A stretch of DNA of 32,000 nucleotides from Clostridia bacterium (GCA_017409845.1 JAFQRY010000017.1:46171-78170), one strand, 5' to 3'; numbered from the stretch's first letter, positions 10,453 through 19,607 are shown. Numbers and translations: made by a program. The notes: generated from the letters alone by a model not told the origin.

Positions 10453-10528
<76 letters not shown>

Positions 10529-10530
10529 AT

Positions 10531-10562
10531 CCCTTGAAACTTAAGGTTTCAAGGGATTTTTC
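10531..10562 (+). terminator. Island-borne terminator behind the reconstituted tRNA-Thr
   Basis: CCCTTGAAAC-ttaag-GTTTCAAGGG followed by ATTTTTC. Confidence 0.7.
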
Positions 10563-10583
10563 TTATGTTTTATGAAATTCATC

Positions 10584-10628
10584 AGACCGCATCCCTAAAT
10601 CGCAATTTTTTAGTAAGGGATGCGGTCT
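10584..10628. promoter_or_regulatory. Perfect 13-bp inverted repeat overlapping the integrase RBS
   Basis: AGACCGCATCCCT (10584..10596) and AGGGATGCGGTCT (10616..10628), separated by a 19-nt loop. The 3' arm contains the AAGGGA SD-like element and ends 4 nt before the int ATG. Confidence 0.45.
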
Positions 10629-10632
10629 AACT

Positions 10633-11565
10633 ATGAGCAGAAAAATCACTATGAACAGGACTGAAAACAAGACTTTTGAACAGGTCTTTTCAATGTTCAT
10701 CACTTCAAGAACGGCAAACGGCGTTTCCGATGCAACAATCAGGAATTATCATCAGCATTTGCACAGTATTTCAAAGTATCTTGACATTCAGATGCCCTTT
10801 GATAAGCTCTCCAAAAGCACCATTGATGATATGATTGTCGCTATGCGAAACTCCAACCTTGCCTACAATTCTATTGCAACCTATGTCAGAGTTGTAAAAA
10901 CTTTTCTTACTTGGTGTAATGAGGAAGGTTTGTCTGATGTTAAAATCAAAGGTCTGAAGGAAAAGGAAACAATCAAAGAAACCTACACCGATGAGGAGCT
11001 TGAAATCCTGTTGGCAAAACCGAAAAAGGACTGTAATTTTTGCGAATACCGTAATTGGGTTATTGTCAATTTTCTCCTCAATAGCGGATGCCGAGCGGCA
11101 ACAATCCGAAACATTCAGAACAGGGATGTTGACCTTCAGCGAAAACAGGTTATCTTCCGACATAATAAGAACGGCAAAATTCAGGTTATCCCCCTTTGTT
11201 CTCTGATGTGTAATATTCTGATTGACTATATGAAAATAAGGCAGGGAGAATCAGAGGATTATCTTTTCTGCGACCAATACGGCAAAATGCTGACCGAGAA
11301 CGGTCTCAGACTTGCCATTGAACGATACAACAAGAAAAGAGGCGTAAGCAAAACAAGCACGCATCTGTTCCGCCACACCTTTGCCCGAAAGTATTTAGTT
11401 GACTGCGGCGGCGATGCCTTTATGCTTCAAAGGCTCTTGGGTCATAGCACTCTGAACATGACAAAGCATTACTGCACAATCTTCGATGCGGATATTTCCA
11501 AGAACTATGACAGAGTTTCTCCTCTTGCTCAGATGCACCAAGAGAAAAAGAAAATAATCAAATGA
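10633..11565 (+). CDS. Tyrosine recombinase / phage-type integrase
   Basis: C-terminal catalytic signature ...SGCRAATIRN..., THLFRHTFARKYL, LLGHSTLNMTKHY (R..HxxR..Y), with an N-terminal SAM-like core-binding region. Confidence 0.9.
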   Translation: MSRKITMNRTENKTFEQVFSMFITSRTANGVSDATIRNYHQHLHSISKYLDIQMPFDKLSKSTIDDMIVAMRNSNLAYNSIATYVRVVKTFLTWCNEEGLSDVKIKGLKEKETIKETYTDEELEILLAKPKKDCNFCEYRNWVIVNFLLNSGCRAATIRNIQNRDVDLQRKQVIFRHNKNGKIQVIPLCSLMCNILIDYMKIRQGESEDYLFCDQYGKMLTENGLRLAIERYNKKRGVSKTSTHLFRHTFARKYLVDCGGDAFMLQRLLGHSTLNMTKHYCTIFDADISKNYDRVSPLAQMHQEKKKIIK

Positions 11566-11574
11566 TATAAAGAA

Positions 11575-11611
11575 AGAAGCAGGAGCTTATCAACTTTCCT
11601 GCTTCTTTTTA
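11575..11611. terminator. Terminator between convergent int and WYL genes
   Basis: AGAAGCAGGA (11575..11584) and TCCTGCTTCT (11597..11606), followed by a T-run. Confidence 0.6.
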
Positions 11612-11652
11612 ATTAGTTTGAAACAACCTTTTTGCTACATTATAAGAACTTT

Positions 11653-12786
11653 TTAACAACTTTTTTTATCGTTATACATATCTCTTATTTTATCCAAATG
11701 AGCCTTATATCCTTCAACCACATGGTCAGGTGCAAGAACTTTTACTTTTTTGCCGAACCCTGCAAGCCAACCGTAAAAAGGTTCGCTTATATCAACCGTT
11801 GTCATAACCGTAAAATAATCTTTGTCGAGCTTAGAATATGATACACCCTTTTTGCCGAATCGTTCAACAACAGCATCCAAAAGGAAGTTTGGAAAACAAA
11901 GAGTGACTACTTCTGTTTTGCCTTTAAACATATTAAATGTTCTTTTTATGAGCGATTCAATATTGGTCTTTTCATATTCTTCTTCGCCCTCTCTTGGTTC
12001 AGATGTAAAACAAACGTCTTTCATCCTGTCAACCCTGTAAATTCTTATCTCTTTGTATTTATCATCAAATCCTAAAAGATAATAATTGCCGTCATTGATA
12101 ACGAGCTTATAAGGACTGACAATATATTTTTCTCCTTTTCTCTGTGCAACCTGATTGTGAAGGTCGTTTATTGAGTTTTTCATATAATGAAAACTTATCT
12201 TTTCGGGTTCGTGCGGTTCGCCGTCATAACTGACACTCATTGCTTCGTAAATAGTTTGAATGTTGTATATCAGAGCGGTATTTGTTGTTTTAGGTCTGTC
12301 GATAACAAACGCATCCGCCTTTATTTTCTTTGCCTGATGAACACTGAGAAATTCACAGGCGGCATCAATCAATCTCTGAGCTTCAGATTCAGAAACAAAT
12401 TTTGCCGAGTTAATGCACTCAGTCATAAGGCGAATATCTTGAAGGCTGAAGTGTCGCTCAGGGATATAAAAGCCTTTGGGATGTTTGTAAAGAATCAATT
12501 TTTCTTCATCGTATTTATCGTTCGCAATTACTTTTACGGCTTCATCAATATCAGAATCGTTTTCAAGCATCCAATTAACTTCATTTATTTCTTCAATATC
12601 TTTGTATATGGAGCGGCGTTCCGCATAAATCTGACAGTTCTCCTGAAGAAAAGCCTCAATCATTTTGCCTGAAGCATAATTATCTTCATCGGTTTCTCTG
12701 AGAAGATACTGAAGAACGATATAAGGCTTCATACGTTGCTTCGGCTTTTTGCCGTGATGCTTATCGGGATGCTTTTTCTCTGCCAT
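11653..12786 (-). CDS. wHTH-WYL-WCX transcriptional regulator (BrxR/CapW-like architecture)
   Basis: N-terminal wHTH (IVLQYLLRETDEDNYASGKMIEAFL...AERRSIYKDIEEI). The WYL-type core is YIVSPYKLVINDGNYYLLGFDDKYKEIRIYRVDRM. The C-terminal end FYGWLAGFGKKVKVLAPDHVVEGYKAHL is typical of WCX domains. AAGGTGA SD. Confidence 0.8.
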   Translation of the reverse strand: MAEKKHPDKHHGKKPKQRMKPYIVLQYLLRETDEDNYASGKMIEAFLQENCQIYAERRSIYKDIEEINEVNWMLENDSDIDEAVKVIANDKYDEEKLILYKHPKGFYIPERHFSLQDIRLMTECINSAKFVSESEAQRLIDAACEFLSVHQAKKIKADAFVIDRPKTTNTALIYNIQTIYEAMSVSYDGEPHEPEKISFHYMKNSINDLHNQVAQRKGEKYIVSPYKLVINDGNYYLLGFDDKYKEIRIYRVDRMKDVCFTSEPREGEEEYEKTNIESLIKRTFNMFKGKTEVVTLCFPNFLLDAVVERFGKKGVSYSKLDKDYFTVMTTVDISEPFYGWLAGFGKKVKVLAPDHVVEGYKAHLDKIRDMYNDKKSC

Positions 12787-12815
12787 AATATCACCTTCTT
12801 GTCTCTGTTGGCGAT

Positions 12816-12844
12816 ATTATAATATATCTCCCAAAAGAAAACAA
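12816..12844 (-). promoter_or_regulatory. Candidate promoter of the WYL regulator gene
   Basis: Minus strand: TTGTTT, 17 nt, TATAAT, about 30 nt upstream of ATG 12786. Confidence 0.4.
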
Positions 12845-12907
12845 GCTTTTGCTTTTGTGTGGTTGATAATAAATTTTACTTGTGTTATGATTTGATAAAT
12901 AAGAGCT

Positions 12908-12936
12908 TTGACAAAAATATTTTTCTATGATAAGAT
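12908..12936 (+). promoter_or_regulatory. Candidate promoter of the nuclease gene
   Basis: TTGACA (12908..12913), 17 nt, TAAGAT (12931..12936) with TG at -15/-14. It is divergent from the WYL promoter. Confidence 0.45.
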
Positions 12937-12955
12937 AATATTGAGGTGGAATATT

Positions 12956-14494
12956 ATGGAATTTATCAAATTTGTTGAACAAATCCCCAACATTACAATT
13001 GCAAAAAGGATTGCTTCTACATATGTTGCTGATTACAGGCGATTAGACCTTGATGAAATAAAATCGTTTTTGATTAAAACCGAAAAGCAATATACTTCAT
13101 ACGATAATATTTCTGCTCGTTTGGATGAGCTTAAACTTGATTCTAATAGAACAGTAAGAATAATTGCACCAATTTTGTTGCGTGATTATTTGCTTGACCA
13201 AGATGATTTTATTTCTTCTTGCAAAGATACTGATTCAGCTATTCTTAATTATGAAAAAGAAATCATCGATGAATCCAACAACTTTGATATTAACAAAATA
13301 TCAAAAGATTTAGCACTGTTTAAATATATGTTAGATACTGCTTGGAATCTTAACGATGATATATCAATAGATGAAAAGAATTTGCTTGAAGCTCTGCGTA
13401 ATTATTTATCAATTACAATCAGAGAACAACAAATTTTAGAAGCAAAGTCGGGAAGATTTCCGAACCTCGAAAATGTTTTGCATACCTTTGACGATATTGA
13501 CACTGCAAGAAAAGTTTTACAATCAAAAGGTTTACTTGCGTGTATAAAGAATTCAGAGGGTGTAATGTGTGATATGATACCTGATGATATAGCAATAGCT
13601 ATTCGTAAATACTATGGTGTCGAAATGCGTTCTTATGGTTATGAGAAATTAATCGATTATGTAATAAAGAAAACCAACAAACAGTATTTGATAGACATAG
13701 TTAAAAAGGCAAGCACCTATTATAAAACTGCAAATATAGAAATATCAAACAATCCAACTGTTCAAGAATTAAAAATTATTATTCAAAAGAAAATTAAGCC
13801 GAGCAATTTGATAGCAGGTTTTTCACCTCGTGATGGTTTGGATGTTTCTATGCTTTCAGCTTGGTGCGGAGATTTAGGTCTTGTTGTATCAGGAGCTAAA
13901 AATATTCTTGTTGACCGAATTATGAAACATTATGATTCTCTGAGACGCATCGAAATAAAAACAGAAGATAAAAGAGAAAAACTTGTTTCTGTTTATATCG
14001 AATTAGCAAAGAGAAATTTAAAGTTTTTGCATTCCAATGATATTATAGAAAAAGATTTACAGTGTGAACACTACTTTGAAGATGCAACAAACTATATATT
14101 TGAAAAAATGTTAATGAATAAACCATTAACATTAACAGGAACTGAACATCCCGACGGTAAATTATCATTTAAAGATAAATACATAATGTGGGATAACAAA
14201 TCAAAAGAATCTCCTGTTAATTTGAAAGACCACATTCAACAGTTTGACAGATATATAAAAACATCAGATAAAGATGTTGTTGTATTTATGGTAATAGCTC
14301 CTGAGTTCACTCCGCAAAGTGTTCAAGAGTGTGTCGATTATTCCTTAAACAACGATACTCAAATTCTGCTTATAACAGCAGAAGAATTAAAGACTGTTGC
14401 TGAATCTTGGGCAAAAAAACACAATGGTGAAATATTCAATTTGGGTTATTTCAAACAGAACGGAAGATTCGACATAAAACTGTTAAATTTATAA
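12956..14494 (+). CDS. 513-aa protein: unknown N-terminal region + SAP motif + C-terminal FokI-like PD-(D/E)xK nuclease domain
   Basis: ATG 12956 with GAGGTGG SD (track start 12908 rejected). The SAP-like motif is LSAWCGDLGLVVSGAKNILVDRIMKHY. The C-terminus reads VYIELAKRN...FEDAT...TEHPDGKLSFKDKYIMWDNKSKE...QQFDRYI...VVVFMVIAPEF...ILLITAEELK. It parallels the FokI cleavage domain as I recall it (YIELIEIARN...KPDGAIY...VIVDTKAY...DEMQRYV...FLFVSGHF...AVLSVEELL). Confidence 0.8.
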   Translation: MEFIKFVEQIPNITIAKRIASTYVADYRRLDLDEIKSFLIKTEKQYTSYDNISARLDELKLDSNRTVRIIAPILLRDYLLDQDDFISSCKDTDSAILNYEKEIIDESNNFDINKISKDLALFKYMLDTAWNLNDDISIDEKNLLEALRNYLSITIREQQILEAKSGRFPNLENVLHTFDDIDTARKVLQSKGLLACIKNSEGVMCDMIPDDIAIAIRKYYGVEMRSYGYEKLIDYVIKKTNKQYLIDIVKKASTYYKTANIEISNNPTVQELKIIIQKKIKPSNLIAGFSPRDGLDVSMLSAWCGDLGLVVSGAKNILVDRIMKHYDSLRRIEIKTEDKREKLVSVYIELAKRNLKFLHSNDIIEKDLQCEHYFEDATNYIFEKMLMNKPLTLTGTEHPDGKLSFKDKYIMWDNKSKESPVNLKDHIQQFDRYIKTSDKDVVVFMVIAPEFTPQSVQECVDYSLNNDTQILLITAEELKTVAESWAKKHNGEIFNLGYFKQNGRFDIKLLNL

Positions 14495-14513
14495 TTTTGA
14501 AAAAATAAGTTTT

Positions 14514-14554
14514 AATCAAAAAATTCCGCATACGTAAGTGTGCGGAATTTTTTC
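14514..14554. terminator. Bidirectional terminator between the nuclease and the serine recombinase
   Basis: CAAAAAA-AATTCCGCA-tacgtaagtg-TGCGGAATT-TTTTT. Confidence 0.7.
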
Positions 14555-14555
14555 A

Positions 14556-15143
14556 TCAGCTCTCCAAAAGAGAAAGATATTTATAAACCGTGTTTCTGCT
14601 CAGACCGCAAACTCTTGCAAACTCTGAAAGATTCAGACTGCCTGATTTGAAAGACGGATAATGCCTGTAAAACACTTGCGGAATCGCATCCGTTGTTGTG
14701 TGCGGTCGCCCGATTTTCGCTCCTTTTGCTTTGGCATTTGCCATTCCTGAACGCACTCTTTCACGTATGATTCTGAGTTCGAGTTCCGCAAACACTCCCG
14801 ACATCTGAATGAAAGCATTTGTCATGGGGTCAATCTGACCGTTTGAACAATCAACCGTAATACTGCCGACAATAACGAGACGGAGCTTATTATCCTTTAC
14901 GGTCTCAATTATTTCACAAAGTTGTTTTGTGCTTCGGGCAAGTCTTGAAACTTCAAGGGTGTAAATTGTGTCTCCTGCCTGAGCCTGTTCCAAGAGGGTT
15001 GAAAGCTCCTGCTTCACAGCACTGTCGCCGTGTTCGTATTCAAGGAATATTTCCGTTGCTCCTGCGGCTTTCAGTTCTTTAACCTGACGAAAAATATCTT
15101 GTTTGCTCTCATTAGTCGAGCAACGTGCATATCCGTAATTCAT
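14556..15143 (-). CDS. Small serine recombinase (resolvase/invertase family)
   Basis: MNYGYARCSTNESKQD (catalytic Ser), EVSRLARS, ELELRIIRERVRSGMANAKAKGAKIGRP, and a C-terminal HTH (LSEFARVCGLSRNTVYKYL). Confidence 0.9.
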   Translation of the reverse strand: MNYGYARCSTNESKQDIFRQVKELKAAGATEIFLEYEHGDSAVKQELSTLLEQAQAGDTIYTLEVSRLARSTKQLCEIIETVKDNKLRLVIVGSITVDCSNGQIDPMTNAFIQMSGVFAELELRIIRERVRSGMANAKAKGAKIGRPHTTTDAIPQVFYRHYPSFKSGSLNLSEFARVCGLSRNTVYKYLSLLES

Positions 15144-15157
15144 GATTTATCTCCTTA

Positions 15158-15424
15158 TCAATCAACAAAGGTGTTGTATGTGAATTTTGCTCCGAGCTTA
15201 AAGCCTGCTATAAAACTGTCTGCGTTGCTCACGCAGAGGAACTCTCCTGACTGTTTTAGATATGTGTCAAAGAGTTCACTCTCGACATCCGTCAGTTTTT
15301 CGGAAAGTTGTTCTTCTGTCTTTGACAATACGGCGAGCTTATTCCTGACCGTTGCTCTAAGCTCCGTTGTGATTTCCTGCGGCTCGATGTTTCCGTAATA
15401 AAATTCTTCGATGATGTGTGTCAT
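15158..15424 (-). CDS. Hypothetical 88-aa protein (resembles the DUF6809-type proteins seen beside recombinases in Clostridia; from memory)
   Basis: Good SD (GAAAGGA). EEFYYGNIEPQE...FIAGFKLGAKF pattern. In an operon with the recombinase. Confidence 0.65.
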   Translation of the reverse strand: MTHIIEEFYYGNIEPQEITTELRATVRNKLAVLSKTEEQLSEKLTDVESELFDTYLKQSGEFLCVSNADSFIAGFKLGAKFTYNTFVD

Positions 15425-15438
15425 AATCTATCCTTTCA

Positions 15439-15462
15439 CCGCCCCACTGTTGCGTGGGGCGG
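15439..15462 (-). promoter_or_regulatory. GC-rich intercistronic stem-loop
   Basis: CCGCCCCAC-tgttgc-GTGGGGCGG between the 91-aa and 88-aa cistrons. There is no T-run, so it is more likely an mRNA processing/stability element than a terminator. Confidence 0.35.
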
Positions 15463-15473
15463 ACTGTCTATTC

Positions 15474-15749
15474 TCAGCAGATTGAGAAGCGGCGGCTGCT
15501 GACCTGCTTTGTGAACTCCTTATACATATCTGCATGGGATTTCTTGAATGATGTTGTATCGAATCTCTGTGAAAGAACTGATGTCCAACGGATGATGTAA
15601 GCTCCTGCTTCAAGTTCCTCGGTGTTCTGTTCAAGCATCTCTGCTTTGAGTGCCTCTCTGATTGCCTCTGCTTCTGCCTTTGCATCCTCGATGATTGCTT
15701 CCCACTCTGCGAGAGCCTCGATTTTTCTTACGATTTCGTTGTTTGACAT
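15474..15749 (-). CDS. Hypothetical 91-aa protein, predicted coiled-coil N-terminus
   Basis: AGGAGA SD. EALAEWEAIIEDAKAEAEAIREALKAEM helix, then the conserved-looking IIRWTSVLSQRFDTTSFKK...SSRRFSI tail common in Clostridial mobile elements (recollection). Confidence 0.65.
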   Translation of the reverse strand: MSNNEIVRKIEALAEWEAIIEDAKAEAEAIREALKAEMLEQNTEELEAGAYIIRWTSVLSQRFDTTSFKKSHADMYKEFTKQVSSRRFSIC

Positions 15750-15806
15750 GGTTGTTATCTCCTTTGTTCTGTTGTTTTGATGTGTTGTTGTTTATCAACT
15801 GTACTC

Positions 15807-15835
15807 ATTATACTACGAAATTCGTAGTTTGTCAA
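15807..15835 (-). promoter_or_regulatory. Consensus sigma-A promoter for the 91-aa/88-aa/recombinase operon
   Basis: Minus strand: TTGACA (15830..15835), 17 nt, TATAAT (15807..15812). The spacer contains the palindrome TACGAA-A-TTCGTA. Confidence 0.65.
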
Positions 15836-15910
15836 TACGTTTTTCGTAATTTCTTTACGAATTTCGAAACTTTTTTTCGTTTTGCGTATTGATTTATTAC
15901 GAATTTCGTG
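15814..15910. promoter_or_regulatory. Operator array: TACGAA-N-TTCGTA palindromes
   Basis: 15814..15826 TACGAAATTCGTA, 15836..15848 TACGTTTTTCGTA (degenerate), 15856..15868 TACGAATTTCGAA, 15898..15910 TACGAATTTCGTG. Two of them sit inside the promoter spacers. Confidence 0.55.
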
Positions 15911-15917
15911 ATACAAT
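15889..15917 (+). promoter_or_regulatory. Sigma-A promoter of the XRE regulator gene
   Basis: TTGATT (15889..15894), 17 nt, TACAAT (15912..15917). An operator half-palindrome lies in the spacer. Confidence 0.6.
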
Positions 15918-15941
15918 CATCCAAAAGGAAGGTGCAATAAA

Positions 15942-16157
15942 ATGATAAGATTCAAAGTAAAGGTTCGTCTTGCCGAATGCAACATGACCCAAAAGGAATT
16001 AGCAGAAAAAACAGGCATCAGACCGCCGACTGTATCGGCAATTTGCGTGGGAACGGTCAAGCATTTGCCGATTGATGCACTTGACAAAATGTGTGATGTC
16101 CTCGATTGTCAGCCTGCCGACCTCATGGAGTATGTAAAAGACCCCGATGCTCAGTAA
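15942..16157 (+). CDS. XRE-family helix-turn-helix transcriptional regulator (Cro/CI-like)
   Basis: 71 aa. MTQKELAEKTGIRPPTVSAICVG...LDKMCDVLDCQPADLMEY is a classic HTH_XRE. GGAAGGTG SD. Confidence 0.85.
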   Translation: MIRFKVKVRLAECNMTQKELAEKTGIRPPTVSAICVGTVKHLPIDALDKMCDVLDCQPADLMEYVKDPDAQ

Positions 16158-16430
16158 AGTGTGTTTCGAGTTTCTTGAACAAATAACGGCGATTTTTGTG
16201 CGGAATACACCCGATTTTTGCCGAGCTTAAAATGTGAAGGAAAGCAGTTGTTTTTCTGAACAGGGGTCAGGGGGTATATTTCGGGAGAATCAAAAACACT
16301 TTCGCCCTTTGCGGAATTGCGTGGCTTGTTCTCCGTCTGAATGTGATTTTTGTTTCGGATTACGGTTTATCCCGACCGCAAATGATAGAATGATTATTTC
16401 TCCGTCAAACGAACCAAAAGGAATATAAAC

Positions 16431-16477
16431 GAAAAAATACGGCAAACCGTGAGATTGTCTCTCTTGGTTTGCCGTAT
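16431..16477 (-). terminator. Terminator of the amber-interrupted minus-strand operon
   Basis: ATACGGCAAACC (16437..16448) and GGTTTGCCGTAT (16466..16477). On the minus strand it is followed by TTTTTTC. Confidence 0.55.
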
Positions 16478-16479
16478 TG

Positions 16480-16614
16480 TCATTTCCAATCCTTGAATAT
16501 TTCATCAAGTGCCATATCGAGTTCGGTTTTCATGCTCTTTTGCATAAAGGCAAGAATTTCCGCCTCGATTATGTTTTTCTTTTTCTTCTTCTTTTTGTCT
16601 TTTGGATTCGACAC
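16480..16614 (-). CDS. Possible 44-aa lysine-rich small protein (below ORF-track cutoff)
   Basis: GTG start 9 nt after a GAGGTG SD. (M)SNPKDKKKKKKKNIIEAEILAFMQKSMKTELDMALDEIFKDWK, TGA stop just before the terminator. Confidence 0.35.
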   Translation of the reverse strand: MSNPKDKKKKKKKNIIEAEILAFMQKSMKTELDMALDEIFKDWK

Positions 16615-16616
16615 CG

Positions 16617-16802
16617 TTATTTCACCTCACTTGTAAAGATGAATTGAACAGTCTCAGATTCTTCCGAATCCTGTAATGAGTTGAAGAAATTATCTCTCTG
16701 TTCTCTATAGTTTTCTATTGCAGATTTGCCGTTCATTTGATAATAAAACAAATCAGGAACTTTGCCCTATGCTCTGTTAAACTCCAATAAATCTTTATTC
16801 AT
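16617..16802 (-). pseudogene. 61-codon ORF interrupted by in-frame TAG at codon 12 (pseudogene under code 11, or amber read-through)
   Basis: The ATG overlaps the upstream TGA (ATGA). MNKDLLEFNRA-TAG(16767..16769)-GKVPDLFYYQMNGKSAIENYREQRDNFFNSLQDSEESETVQFIFTSEVK-TAA. Confidence 0.45.
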
Positions 16803-17236
16803 ATATATTCTCCTTCCATAATATCATCAAGGGATATATTCAATGCACCCCTGTTGACCGTATAACTTCTCCAATTTTCCTCTTTTGGAATCTGAGTGTT
16901 CAGCGGCGGCTAATACAGGCGGATGAAATATCCTTCTCTTTCTCCGATTTCTTCTTCGATTTCTGCTCTTGTTTTGCTCTTGGCGGTGTAAAGAACATGG
17001 AATCTGACGGAATAGTTCCGTCTGTTAGCCTCGGCAAGAACCTTGTATTTGTTCTCTTTTGGATTACCCATTGAAGCCCAATGTTCCGCCATTCGGTATA
17101 GAATATCTTTGCTTTTACCGATATAAACAATTTTATTGTTGACGGTTATTGAATAAACCCCCGAACACTAAAACTTTTTACTCCATTCTTGCTCTATGTA
17201 TTTGTTGTATATGTTCTGTATGTGTAAATTACTCAT
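16799..17236 (-). pseudogene. GIY-YIG nuclease-domain gene with two in-frame TAG codons
   Basis: AAAGGAGA SD. MSNLHIQNIYNKYIEQEWSKKF-TAG(17168..17170)-CSGVYSITVNNKIVYIGKSKDILYRMAEHW...EIGEREGYFIRLY-TAG(16910..16912)-PPLNTQIPKEENW...-TGA. The GVY...VYIG and E..I....P.LN elements of GIY-YIG lie on either side of the second TAG. The track shows only the 60-aa fragment 16910..17092. Confidence 0.7.
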
Positions 17237-17251
17237 ATTCATTCTCCTTTA

Positions 17252-17728
17252 TTAAAATTTAAAATTACCGTGTTCGTCTGTTAAACTCCCACTTACTTTT
17301 GGATTCTTTATATTGTTATAATTTATATTATTCGAGCTTATAATTTTCCCTATATTATTATGCGTATTTTCAATAACCCCTGCTGAGGTGTATTCAGAAT
17401 TTGAAGGGGTATATTCATTGTCGGGGGAAGGGGTATTTTCAATATCCCTCTCCGCACTTTTATAAATCGCATCATAATCAACGATGATTTCGCCTTGCTG
17501 ACCGTTTTCGCTTGGCTTGTGGATTATCCAACCTTTTTCAATCAGCTTTTTTCTTGCACTCTTATACGTTGTTTCTGACATTCCGCATCTGTTCATGACC
17601 GTTGCCTCAGGAACAGCAAAACTGCCGTTATCTGCGTTTCCTGTCAGAAATAATATCAGTTTCAGCTAAGCTCCTTCTTTGCCTGTCAGACCGTTAAATA
17701 TTATTGATTCAAGGTGATTCGTTCTCAT
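17252..17728 (-). pseudogene. wHTH DNA-binding protein (replication-initiator/replisome-organizer-like N-terminus) with in-frame TAG at codon 21
   Basis: MRTNHLESIIFNGLTGKEGA-TAG(17666..17668)-LKLILFLTGNADNGSFAVPEATVMNRCGMSETTYKSARKKLIEKGWI... The L.G.E..LKL.LFL....F.....I....GMS..TY..A...L.EKGWI pattern is continuous across the TAG. The track shows only 17252..17596. Confidence 0.7.
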
Positions 17729-17765
17729 TGCCATTCCCCACTTTTTATCCCTGTTTTTTTCTCCA

Positions 17766-17945
17766 TTAGCCCTCAGTATCGGTGCCTGAATAAAAACGCC
17801 CATAACCGCAAATCCTCCACTGTTCGCAAATAAATCTGATATACTGACTTGTATTCATGTGATATTTTCTTGCCTACTCTTGGATTGCTTCCTTTTCTTT
17901 TTCGGTTAAGCGAAGGTCAATTTTTTTATTTTTTATAGTCTTCAT
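17766..17945 (-). pseudogene. Ribbon-helix-helix (MobC/CopG-like) protein gene with in-frame TAG
   Basis: AAGGAGAG SD. MKTIKNKKIDLRLTEKEKEAIQE-TAG(17874..17876)-ARKYHMNTSQYIRFICEQWRICGYGRFYSGTDTEG-TAA. The beta-strand, helix 1 and helix 2 of an RHH span the TAG. An alternative in-frame ATG is at 17996. Confidence 0.65.
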
Positions 17946-18015
17946 ATTATCTCTCCTTTTACTTGTAAATTTTCTTTGAAATGAATTATCAGACATTGTC
18001 CTACCTTCTAAATAT

Positions 18016-18044
18016 ATTATACAAAAATTTTTTGTTAAAATCAA
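18016..18044 (-). promoter_or_regulatory. Consensus promoter of the amber-interrupted operon
   Basis: Minus strand: TTGATT (18039..18044), 17 nt, TATAAT (18016..18021). Confidence 0.55.
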
Positions 18045-18050
18045 AAAAGA

Positions 18051-18098
18051 GCGGTCGCCGCAAACAAAAGCACCGCTGAACTCGATTGAATTCAGCGG
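18051..18098 (-). terminator. Tandem terminator hairpins after the paralog operon
   Basis: On the minus strand, CCGCTGAA-loop-TTCAGCGG (18073..18098) is followed by TGCTTTTGTTT. Then GCGG-cga-CCGC (18051..18061) is followed by TCTTTTTT. Confidence 0.5.
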
Positions 18099-18135
18099 CG
18101 GACTTGCTTTATTAAAATACATGGAGTTGTTCCTT

Positions 18136-18651
18136 TCAGGCGGCAGGGTCAACTGTTTCATTTTCTTCAGTTGCGTTATCGTTTTCTGCAACTGCGTTAT
18201 CGATTTTTATAACTGCGTTATCTTTTTCCTCTTGGACTTCATCAGAGTTTTTGGCAACAGTCGGCATACCGTAATTTACGATTTCAGGATATTTCTTCAA
18301 AAACCAATTTTTAATTTCAGGATAACGGTATGCTTTTGAATGACATTCGCTGATAAAAAGCTTATCATCAAGTTCTTTAAGAACGGCATCTCTTGTTTCA
18401 ACAGGCTCAAACCTTTTGATATATTCTTTCATATAATCATAACTTAAACCTTTATAGTGTTCCTGATTGTTGTTAGTATTTATATCTTCACGAACTTCTA
18501 TCTTATAAGTCGGAAAACTCCTTGTATATTCAACGAGCATTTTAAACTCTTTGTTTTTGGGACTTCTAGCCTTTTCGTCAAACCATTTGTAAAGGATGAT
18601 TTTATTGTTTGCGTGGTCAAATCTTGCAGGATTCTTTCTTGCCTTAGCCAT
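18136..18651 (-). CDS. Hypothetical protein, paralog B (171 aa) with C-terminal heptad DNAV repeats
   Basis: GAAAGGAAGG SD. It shares FDHANNKI...YKIEVRE...YDYMKEYIKR...IKNWFLKKYPE with the upstream gene. Confidence 0.75.
   Translation of the reverse strand: MAKARKNPARFDHANNKIILYKWFDEKARSPKNKEFKMLVEYTRSFPTYKIEVREDINTNNNQEHYKGLSYDYMKEYIKRFEPVETRDAVLKELDDKLFISECHSKAYRYPEIKNWFLKKYPEIVNYGMPTVAKNSDEVQEEKDNAVIKIDNAVAENDNATEENETVDPAA
18169..18231. repeat. 3 x 21-bp tandem repeat (core A-A/G-C/T-TGCGTTATC)
   Basis: Units at 18169, 18190 and 18211. They encode KDNAVIK/IDNAVAE/NDNATEE at the 3' end of paralog B. Confidence 0.7.
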
Positions 18652-18674
18652 AATTATTTGCCTTCCTTTCTTAA

Positions 18675-19076
18675 TTAAGCCGCATCATTGATTTTCTTGA
18701 GTTCGGGGTATTGCTCATAGAACCAAGTTTTGATATCGTGGAATGATTCAGCTGAAGTCTTGTTATCCTTATCGACTTTTAAGCCTCTCTTAACAAGAAA
18801 CTCATTCATAATTTCACCATTCGAATCGTGCTTTGCAATATACTTTGCCATAATTTCAAACGAGATTCTATTTGAATTTCTTCTGCTCTGAGTTCTAACC
18901 ACAACTCTATAATCAGAGAACTTTGACATAAGGTCTTCGAGAACTAAATATTCTTCTGTGCCGTATTTTCCTGATGCCTTGTGAAACTGCTTTGAAACGG
19001 TGATTGTCTTGTTTGCGTGGTCGATTGTGAGGTTGTTTGCAAGGTCGATTGAAGTTTTCTTAATAGTATTTTTCAT
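18675..19076 (-). CDS. Hypothetical protein, paralog A (133 aa)
   Basis: GAAAGGAAAA SD. IDHANKTITVSKQF...YRVVVRT...FEIMAKYIAKH...IKTWFYEQYPE parallels paralog B. Confidence 0.75.
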   Translation of the reverse strand: MKNTIKKTSIDLANNLTIDHANKTITVSKQFHKASGKYGTEEYLVLEDLMSKFSDYRVVVRTQSRRNSNRISFEIMAKYIAKHDSNGEIMNEFLVKRGLKVDKDNKTSAESFHDIKTWFYEQYPELKKINDAA

Positions 19077-19280
19077 AATAATTTTCCTTTCAGCGTCGGT
19101 CGCTACCCATTATTTTTAAAATTATTCAGCGGTAAGTCGCTACCTTATTTCAGCACTTCAGGTTTCACCGTTTGCCTCTTGGTTTCGTTCACTCCTTTCA
19201 GGCGTTTTGTTTTGGTGTGTTCCCCTCTGCTGTGTCTACAGTATATCACGCAACCACAATTTATCAGTCGTTATAAATGC

Positions 19281-19328
19281 AAAAAACAAGAAAGATACAA
19301 AGCTTTTAAAAAAAGTTGTATCTTTCTT
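19281..19328 (-). terminator. Insulating terminator upstream of the paralog-operon promoter
   Basis: AAGAAAGATACAA (19288..19300) and TTGTATCTTTCTT (19316..19328). On the minus strand it is followed by GTTTTTT. Confidence 0.5.
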
Positions 19329-19395
19329 CTTAAATAGTTGTTATTAGGTTGCTATAAAGGCTCATAAATGTTGTTAAAAACTTATTACATACCTG

Positions 19396-19424
19396 TTGAT
19401 TTTATAATATAATTGTTTTATACT
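19396..19424 (+). promoter_or_regulatory. Outward-facing near-consensus promoter at the right island end
   Basis: TTGATT (19396..19401), 17 nt, TATACT (19419..19424), pointing at attR. Confidence 0.5.
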
Positions 19425-19561
19425 ATTATTGATTTAGAGATGAGGTCTGAGTTAGTATGAAACAAGACCTCTACATAATTAAGATTCCTAAAACTTGTTT
19501 AGTGTCAAGGGGTTGTTGGGGGTATCGTCTCCAAAACAAGACCGTTTTACGGTCTTGTGTG

Positions 19562-19607
19562 CTTGGTAAGGATGAGGTCGGCGGTTCAAGTCCGCCTAGC
19601 AGCTCCA
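19562..19607 (+). repeat. attR core: displaced original 3' end of tRNA-Thr (46-bp DR)
   Basis: Identical to 10483..10528. There is no matching 5' acceptor, D arm or anticodon-stem strand upstream, so it is not a tRNA gene. Confidence 0.9.

Follow-up and report, generated by a model that had tools for sequence, protein, structure and literature searches.

Do a WYL-type regulator and the FokI-like nuclease encoded back to back with it form a dedicated two-gene defence system, or does the nuclease act on its own? The question is raised by a gene pair in a 32,000-nucleotide stretch of Clostridia bacterium DNA (GCA_017409845.1 JAFQRY010000017.1:46171-78170; hereafter the window, in whose coordinates all positions are given). 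An earlier note on this DNA had described a WYL-WCX regulator transcribed divergently, across a 169-bp spacer, from a gene for a 513-amino-acid (aa) nuclease, and had proposed the pair as a candidate defence module carried by a tRNA island. Both open reading frames (ORFs) are present where they had been placed, and exactly 169 bp separate their start codons; the nuclease itself is 512 aa long, the figure of 513 having counted the stop codon. The evidence presented below speaks against a two-gene system. Our best reading is instead that the nuclease is one of many interchangeable cargos in a defence/exclusion hotspot of WYL-bearing islands and, elsewhere, a free-standing accessory gene. We assign a probability of roughly 55% to its being a stand-alone, methyltransferase-independent, Type IV-like restriction/exclusion nuclease, carried as a one-gene island cargo and cutting incoming phage or rival-element DNA.

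The nuclease and its cleavage domain

The nuclease gene begins at the ATG at 12956, not at 12953, and its stop codon ends at 14494; homologues are likewise 512 aa long, and the ORF is intact in 76 of the 78 complete loci. The sequence blocks in which a likeness to FokI had been noticed are all there: YIELAKRN at residues 347-354, HPDGKL at 398-403, MWDNKSK at 411-417, QQFDRYI at 428-434 and ILLITAEELK at 470-479. The FokI cleavage-domain sequence used for comparison here is identical to residues 381-576 of the 1FOK chain. Alignment of the nuclease family profile with the FokI cleavage domain (hhalign, E = 1.7e-4) recovered the same blocks, pairing D400, D413 and K415 with FokI D450, D467 and K469, and E375 with the Glu of FokI helix 1. 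No substitution of D400, D413 or K415 occurs in 48 close and 77 wider relatives, and in 38 distant ones their conservation is at least 90%.

Scored as an isolated domain, the window copy reached 15.0 bits (E = 0.017) with the Pfam model FokI_cleav_dom (PF09254), which is under the cut-off of 25, and the full-length protein gave no match to this model at E 0.1 or better. The model was matched by 14 of 38 diverse relatives that are 21-48% identical to the window nuclease (best E = 9.3e-8). Since its own score is under threshold, membership of the window copy in this family rests on transitive homology and on fold. With respect to the latter, an AlphaFold2 (AF2) model of residues 290-512, built from 77 more diverse sequences, had a predicted local distance difference test score (pLDDT) of 92.4, and FokI chains ranked first when Foldseek was used to compare it with the PDB (probability 1.00, query TM-score 0.53-0.56). 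The matches were 2fok_B (E = 4e-6), 1fok_A (E = 5e-5), the FokI-like nickase Nt.BspD6I (E = 4e-4) and HindIII (E = 4e-3), and the small subunit of R.BspD6I was also among the neighbours. This model supersedes a first, full-length one based on a shallow alignment (76-97% identity), in which the nuclease core had a pLDDT of 33-48 over residues ~390-420 and with which Foldseek found no significant PDB match (1fok_A, E = 0.87). Single-sequence searches of the PDB with the nuclease returned a chance match to DnaK only.

Taken together, the profile alignment, the AF2 model and the Foldseek comparison agree with the FokI-like C-terminus that the earlier note had proposed, and we consider it well supported that the C-terminal ~175 aa form a cleavage domain of the FokI-type PD-(D/E)xK class in which the whole catalytic set, E375/D400/D413/K415, is retained. 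The protein would presumably cleave DNA. D483 and R487, which lie on the FokI dimerisation helices, align with Q428 and R432, of which R432 varies among the wider relatives.

The cleavage domain is preceded by a SAP-like motif (GLVVSGAKNILVDRIMKHY, residues 308-326), which had likewise been pointed out beforehand and is supported by profile searches with relatives. Although the window copy scored only 17.1 bits with the SAP model (PF02037; E = 0.004, cut-off 23.9), close homologues scored up to 37 bits, and 23 of the 38 diverse relatives matched it (best E = 1.1e-15). SAP domains were also all that the nuclease family profile matched in the PDB, and these weakly (Ku70 1jjr, SIZ1 and DEK; E 0.014-0.29). 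As in the earlier note, which had put the N-terminal region at ~330 aa, the ~290 aa upstream could not be assigned, by sequence or by fold, Foldseek finding no significant structural neighbour of this N-terminal module in the PDB or BFVD. Residues 1-330 of the full-length AF2 model had block-mean pLDDT values mostly of 70-90. The N-terminal ~290 aa are predicted to be helical; residues ~120-165 would form an acidic helical hairpin resembling TerB, and residues ~175-222 a unit resembling a winged helix. TerB was matched weakly by 6 of the 38 relatives (best E = 1e-4), and weak ENT matches likewise fell around residues 120-165. Among close relatives, identity was highest in the nuclease domain (88%), 72-84% in the N-terminal part and lowest in the SAP region (62%). 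We presume that the N-terminal module is the part that senses DNA or another target.

No model in NCBIfam, PADLOC (2023) or PHROGs matches the nuclease, consistent with the earlier impression that the locus corresponds to no named system. Literature searches found nothing on the family, whose members are annotated as 'hypothetical' or 'SAP domain-containing' in their source records.

Distribution, promoter and neighbours of the nuclease gene

The family is large: clustering at 90% identity divides it into more than 600 groups and clustering at 50% into 254, and it is present in 159 GTDB species representatives. Its hosts are mostly gut and rumen Clostridia known from metagenome-assembled genomes (MAGs), together with Izemoplasma- and Acholeplasma-like bacteria, the isolate Helicovermis profundi, Fibrobacterota and Kiritimatiellae. 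Phage and plasmid collections yielded two matches only, both distant and haloarchaeal (23-24% identity over residues 166-508): HrrHm1_140 of the tailed Halorubrum virus Humcor1 (L095, 4446-6086) and a megaplasmid gene of Natrinema versiforme (NZ_CP040331, 389533-390582). Given these two homologues, the architecture of winged helix, SAP motif and nuclease appears, from sequence comparison, to cross domains of life. Two copies of the nuclease gene per genome were seen in Candidatus Izimoplasma sp. ZiA1 and in an uncultured bacterium (L082 and L084; L083 and L086); of the Izimoplasma copies, L084 is broken into two ORFs and probably represents a pseudogene.

To characterize its surroundings we retrieved 86 nuclease loci; 135 immediate neighbours were taken from ~80 of them, and 81 were used for clustering of genes within 10 kb. 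The contexts were diverse. The 135 neighbours represent 198 Pfam families, among them SecA, glycoside hydrolases, transporters and ribosomal proteins, and the gene was found, for example, beside SecA/GH3, rplJ/rplL and peptidase M3 genes. The commonest neighbouring family, 23S_rRNA_IVP, was present six times and WYL twice. BLAST clustering of the genes within 10 kb gave no family in more than 12 of the 81 loci. Methyltransferases showed no recurrent linkage: no methyltransferase family was present twice among the immediate neighbours, and none was among the families recurring within 10 kb.

In contrast to these variable surroundings, the nuclease gene is accompanied by a conserved promoter of its own. 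In the window it consists of TTGACA at 12908-12913, a 17-nt spacer and an extended -10 element, TG-TAAGAT, ending at 12936, and is followed by the ribosome-binding site (RBS) GAGGTGG. The -35 box, extended -10 element and RBS are kept in all eight of the unrelated genomic contexts compared (46-49 nt upstream aligned). DNA homology between loci runs from ~12907 to the nuclease stop codon; nothing downstream of it is conserved across contexts, and we found no flanking repeats or attC-like element around the cassette. The unit is thus the promoter together with its ORF, which most genomes apparently express with no regulator dedicated to it. Because the promoter and an intact ORF occur in many genomes with no regulator nearby, the nuclease does not appear to be intrinsically toxic to its host.

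Several neighbours merit description in their own right. A 23S_rRNA_IVP gene, encoding a four-helix-bundle protein of 104-134 aa, lies directly upstream of the nuclease gene, ~70-90 nt away, in six species (L008 555-869, L014-L018, L089-L092), one of them carrying the nuclease most similar to that of the window (97% identical) among those outside the island, and is the sole neighbour that recurs at this position. Two loci carry a gene for a DUF559 (Vsr-like) endonuclease directly downstream (L022 11695-12081, L024 11817-12218), and this position may be a hotspot at which small genes of a selfish or accessory kind insert. In one lineage (L048/L001, 8354-9877) a SLFN_AlbA_2/HATPase_c_4/Fic-like_C gene, which matches PADLOC pAgo-associated models (E = 7e-24), is situated just upstream of the nuclease gene and could be a regulator-like or defence-like neighbour.

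The WYL regulator and the island

We confirmed the WYL-WCX architecture of the regulator, both domains scoring above their Pfam gathering cut-offs (WYL, E = 1.7e-12 and 47.6 bits, cut-off 21.8; WCX, E = 4.1e-6 and 27.5 bits, cut-off 23.9); the PADLOC WYL model matched as well (E = 1.9e-25). A profile of the WYL family matches DriD WYL-domain structures at E = 8e-4 (residues 224-360 on WYL-WCX), while phmmer detected no sequence match of the WYL protein to BrxR, CapW or any other solved structure. Pfam gave no helix-turn-helix (HTH) family at E 0.1 or better in residues 1-190. Residues 21-68 are strongly conserved, with P21, Y22, A55, R57, R58, S59, I60, Y61 and D63 invariant, and look like a winged HTH (wHTH) of DeoR type.

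If regulator and nuclease formed a two-gene system, as the earlier note had proposed, they would be expected to travel together, and they do not. A WYL homologue lies near the nuclease gene in 3 of the 86 nuclease loci. One of these (L007) is the same island as that of the window. In another (L050), the gene immediately preceding the nuclease gene encodes another WYL protein, only 27% identical to that of the window, and the insertion lies between a HIGH-nucleotidyltransferase gene and rplJ/rplL; this pairing fits the nuclease being one kind of gene placed beside WYL regulators. In the remaining locus (L022) the WYL gene is 3 kb from the nuclease gene, behind housekeeping genes. Conversely, none of 88 WYL-homologue loci contains the nuclease; this sample combines eight initial loci with 80 from a metagenome scan, and many of its contigs are short.

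What the WYL homologues do accompany is the island. At 55-78% identity they are always convergent with an integrase (truncated in L101-L103), and the integrase of L096-L100 is 82-89% identical to that of the window. Where the contigs of the 88 loci were long enough, backbone genes recurred: orf91 in 24, the integrase (convergent with the WYL gene and downstream of it) in 21, the resolvase in 20 and o171 in 19. Comparison of the window with L007 is also informative, since DNA identity is 95-99% for the integrase and 99-100% for the nuclease gene, yet 76-85% for the WYL gene (79% for the protein; L007 7364-8485); the WYL allele has been swapped by recombination independently of the nuclease. These comparisons indicate that the WYL gene is a regulator belonging to the island backbone and not a dedicated partner of the nuclease. 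An imperfect inverted repeat in the spacer, at 12817-12872 with 25-nt arms that are 72% complementary, is no more than a candidate operator, and any WYL control over the nuclease may amount at most to an extra transcriptional layer on the back-to-back promoters.

In most sister islands the WYL gene is directly preceded, in the same orientation, by a small gene of the XRE-type HTH kind (L096 5665-5991, L098 5665-5991, L119 4493-4822 and others). L096, L098 and L119 also share a conserved, motif-rich region in front of the XRE gene; the window island has neither.

The nuclease gene is cargo of a tRNA-integrated island, as had been proposed. Perfect 46-bp direct repeats at 10483-10528, the 3' end of a tRNA-Thr gene, and at 19562-19607 delimit an island of 9,079 bp, whose G+C content of 0.31-0.40 compares with 0.44-0.49 outside, and host glycoside hydrolases are encoded in the flanks (Table 1). 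A methyltransferase, a specificity subunit and an ATPase were all looked for among the island ORFs with Pfam, PHROG and other scans and none was found, in agreement with the earlier description.

Table 1. Features of the island and the nuclease gene, in window coordinates
Feature	Position	Strand	Basis or remark
tRNA-Thr(GGT)	10453-10528	+	ARAGORN; Rfam tRNA, 68.7 bits; last 46 nt (10483-10528) are attL
Tyrosine integrase, island backbone	10633-11565	+	Pfam Phage_integrase, E 1.3e-25; phrog_1 integrase, E 4.5e-43; convergent with WYL gene
WYL-WCX regulator, 377 aa, probable N-terminal wHTH	11653-12786	-	Pfam WYL and WCX; PADLOC WYL
Divergent control region, 169 bp	12787-12955	.	Imperfect inverted repeat and the nuclease's own promoter
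Nuclease residues 1-289, predicted helical N-terminal module	12956-13822	+	AF2 full-length model
SAP-like helix-extended-helix motif, residues ~297-330	13844-13945	+	Pfam SAP, E 0.004, below cut-off; relatives
Predicted FokI-type PD-(D/E)xK cleavage domain, residues ~340-512, and stop codon	13973-14494	+	AF2, Foldseek, hhalign
Hairpin, likely bidirectional intrinsic terminator	14518-14553	.	Sequence and RNA fold
Serine recombinase (resolvase), backbone, far edge of cargo slot	14556-15143	-	Pfam Resolvase, E 3.8e-29
91-aa backbone ORF (orf91)	15474-15749		phrog_434 and phrog_6244 matches
Two adjacent island ORFs, 171 and 133 aa (o171/o133)	18136-18651 and 18675-19076		Direct repeat D2
attR, right copy of the 46-bp direct repeat, island end	19562-19607	+	Repeat search

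Islands of this kind, ~9 kb in size and integrative, are widespread in gut and rumen Clostridia (window 10483-19607; L096, L098, L106, L119, L125, L154, L158 and others). Their backbone consists of the integrase, the WYL gene, a cargo slot, the resolvase, small conserved ORFs including the o171/o133 paralogues, an HTH protein and a replication-initiator-like protein, and the resolvase is kept at 67-86% identity in related islands. The island L096 illustrates how the backbone is retained while the cargo changes: its integrase is 89%, WYL protein 78%, resolvase 86%, orf91 81% and replication-like protein 59% identical to those of the window, but between its WYL and resolvase genes it has, in the place of the nuclease, an XRE gene, a small ORF and a 707-aa DUF6273 protein. 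The interval from the resolvase (or orf91) to the WYL gene ranges from 89 bp in an empty slot (L158) to 6.7 kb; of 26 distinct slots, 21 have a largest ORF that diverges from the WYL gene. The 38 cargo proteins include a complete Type I restriction-modification (R-M) system (HsdR, HsdM and HsdS; L106), Type IIG enzymes, a HindVP endonuclease accompanied by a C5 methylase, a surface (superinfection-exclusion) lipoprotein of Ltp type, a protein kinase, an RNase T-like exonuclease, an ArdC-N/zincin protein, and HNH/NUMOD4 and T5orf172 proteins. A DUF6273 protein and a Band_7/zinc-ribbon protein are further cargos of the slot.

Further features of the island concern its edges and its small ORFs. 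The hairpin between the convergent nuclease and resolvase genes (-21.5 kcal/mol; z-score -6.75; none of 200 shuffles equally stable) has an A-run and a T-run at its edges, is shared with L007 only and is likely to be a bidirectional terminator. ARAGORN also called a 96-nt 'tRNA-Lys(ttt)' at 19512-19607, where Rfam finds no tRNA; because its last 46 nt are attR, the copy of the tRNA-Thr 3' end, we rejected this call as an island-junction artefact. The ORF orf91 resembles the C-terminal part of a RecE-like recombination exonuclease (phrog_434, E = 3e-11; phrog_6244, E = 2.6e-14). The proteins o171 and o133 are paralogues of one another (D2, 76% over 42 nt), are often paired and occur in 19 related loci; neither has a Pfam or PHROG match.

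Readings of the nuclease and comparison with known systems

According to our preferred reading, the helical module, with its winged-helix-like unit, and the SAP motif would together provide recognition of DNA or another target, and the C-terminal FokI-type domain (E375, D400, D413, K415) would make the cut. The gene would travel as a self-contained cassette of consensus-like promoter and ORF, requiring neither a methyltransferase nor an obligate partner, and its product would serve island and host against incoming phage or rival-element DNA, with the WYL protein acting as the island's own regulator. Since a strong-looking promoter drives the nuclease in many genomes that have no regulator nearby, self-DNA must be spared. 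Target specificity, for instance for modified or otherwise non-self DNA, could achieve this; alternatively, the N-terminal part could hold the enzyme in an autoinhibited state that is relieved by the invader. FokI sequesters its cleavage domain. The order of the parts, recognition first and FokI-type domain last, together with the lack of a methylase and the possession of a promoter, argues for a restriction-like enzyme, and the defence reading gains indirect support from the R-M systems that occupy the same slot in sister islands. We infer that the protein is probably an undescribed one-gene defence nuclease.

Several observations weigh against this reading. Modified-DNA reader domains (SRA, EVE/YTH, Mrr-N) were found neither by Pfam in the 38 relatives nor by the profile search nor among PDB and BFVD folds. 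Diversification of specificity is typical of R-M recognition modules, and the N-terminal part, at the identities given above, is not hypervariable and shows no sign of it. The slot is not exclusively a defence slot, as it also carries ArdC-like and HNH/NUMOD4 proteins, and PADLOC matched none of the first three alternative cargos examined, those of L096, L098 and L101, the R-M systems appearing only in the wider sample. Nor was the enrichment in defence islands for which the earlier note had envisaged a survey apparent: outside the islands the nuclease adjoins mainly housekeeping genes, known-defence matches are few among its immediate neighbours, and there is no classical defence-island clustering. 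Finally, alignment of the 169-bp spacer with the control regions of related islands revealed no shared operator.

Four other explanations were considered. That the WYL protein and the nuclease constitute a dedicated two-gene module, in which a WYL repressor silences a toxic nuclease until infection or DNA damage, would account for the divergent genes with their shared control region and inverted repeat, for the confirmed WYL-WCX architecture and for the second, unrelated WYL gene directly upstream of the nuclease homologue in L050; WYL regulators such as BrxR and CapW do control defence systems (PMC9122601, PMC9122589, PMC11662680). We nonetheless consider it unlikely, given how rarely the two genes meet in either set of loci, the exchange of the WYL allele beside an almost unchanged nuclease gene, the covariation of WYL with the integrase and the rest of the backbone, and the conserved promoter that accompanies intact nuclease genes in many regulator-less genomes and argues against intrinsic toxicity. 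Rather improbable, too, is a selfish, homing-type cassette whose nuclease would cut a specific empty site and so promote its own spread without benefiting the host. Such a cassette would explain the gene-sized conserved unit, whose edges at the -35 box and just past the stop codon stay sharp even when the copy compared is 93% identical and lies in another context, as well as the many unrelated intergenic contexts, the protein identities of 76-97% across MAGs of different families and the occasional presence of other small, selfish-looking neighbours (DUF559 and 23S_rRNA_IVP). However, neutral flanks could not be aligned in any case between loci of 70-80% DNA identity, making most of these edges little informative; no conserved target site, flanking repeats, or intron or intein context was found; and the gene is long, multi-domain and under purifying selection. 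FokI-type domains are not known in homing endonucleases.

The two remaining explanations fare worse. A role in the life cycle of the island, the nuclease processing island or helper-phage DNA in replication, packaging or interference with a helper, is very unlikely. It would suit a small integrative element with integrase, resolvase, replication-initiator-like protein and RecE-C-like ORF, as well as the distant homologue of Halorubrum virus Humcor1, but a nuclease absent from 88 related islands can hardly be a core island function, the slot of L158 is empty, and most copies lie outside recognisable mobile elements, with an integrase within 10 kb in 8 of 81 loci. Least probable of all is a conventional Type IIS restriction enzyme, with the gene for the methyltransferase that protects the host lying at a distant position in the genome. 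While the domain order of recognition followed by FokI-type cleavage and the top Foldseek matches to FokI and BspD6I are as this explanation would have them, the N-terminal part bears no relation to the domains with which FokI recognises DNA, neither the 135 adjacent genes nor the surrounding 10 kb show a recurrent methyltransferase family and the island has none, and a cassette transferred between genomes by itself could not depend on an unlinked methylase.

A stand-alone restriction-like nuclease with a new front end therefore remains our preferred reading. A wider proposal, which we advance tentatively and at somewhat less than even odds, is that the nuclease founds an undescribed single-gene, methyltransferase-independent defence family that spreads as promoter plus ORF, in which the N-terminal module would sense an invader cue (for example a modification or structure of DNA, or a phage protein) and release FokI-type cleavage, the WYL-flanked slot being a hotspot for discovery of others, e.g. 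the DUF6273 and Band_7 cargos. If it is a defence gene, it would represent, for gut anaerobes, whose defence systems are poorly sampled, a compact system of a single protein that includes a new sensing module. It would then also be a natural case of FokI-type cleavage on a different DNA-binding scaffold, which may interest enzyme engineers. Independently of this, islands with the order integrase, WYL, slot and resolvase, whose slot holds several unannotated genes beside the R-M systems, lend themselves to a position-based search for further defence or exclusion genes. For genome scans the locus counsels caution, as a divergent regulator-effector pair at one locus can be the accidental meeting of a backbone regulator and a swappable cargo.

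Among characterized enzymes, FokI (1FOK/2FOK) and Nt.BspD6I/R.BspD6I share with the nuclease the cleavage fold and the catalytic D...D-x-K with an upstream Glu, and FokI also the order of a DNA-binding part followed by the nuclease within one polypeptide. FokI differs in that its domains D1-D3 are unrelated to the N-terminal ~330 aa of the nuclease, which has a SAP motif and no cognate methyltransferase. With no adjacent methyltransferase and a recognition part unrelated to known Type IIS enzymes, the nuclease does not belong to the Type IIS R-M systems. The Type IV enzymes (Mrr, McrA, the MspJI family and SauUSI) resemble it in organization: they are likewise solitary and without a methylase, combine N-terminal sensing with a C-terminal nuclease, are horizontally transferred and are tolerated when expressed from their own promoters. 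No recognised reader domain for modified DNA was detected in the nuclease, however, so that it cannot be placed in any Type IV family, and its dependence on modification is purely our inference.

With the regulators BrxR, CapW and DriD the WYL protein of the island shares the WYL and WCX domains and, in the case of DriD, the profile match. The island WYL gene also lies beside variable cargo that includes R-M systems and is usually divergent from it, as has been described for regulators of the BrxR family (PMC9122601). These regulators differ from the island WYL gene in that the latter is a backbone gene beside the integrase, and its sisters are usually in an operon with an XRE-HTH gene. At the level of the whole element, defence hotspots have been described in P4-like satellites. 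These resemble the present islands in having a conserved backbone around a changing slot with R-M and exclusion genes, whereas the hotspot of the window belongs to a different element family, tRNA-Thr islands of ~9 kb that occur in gut and rumen Clostridia and are built around an integrase, a WYL regulator and a resolvase.

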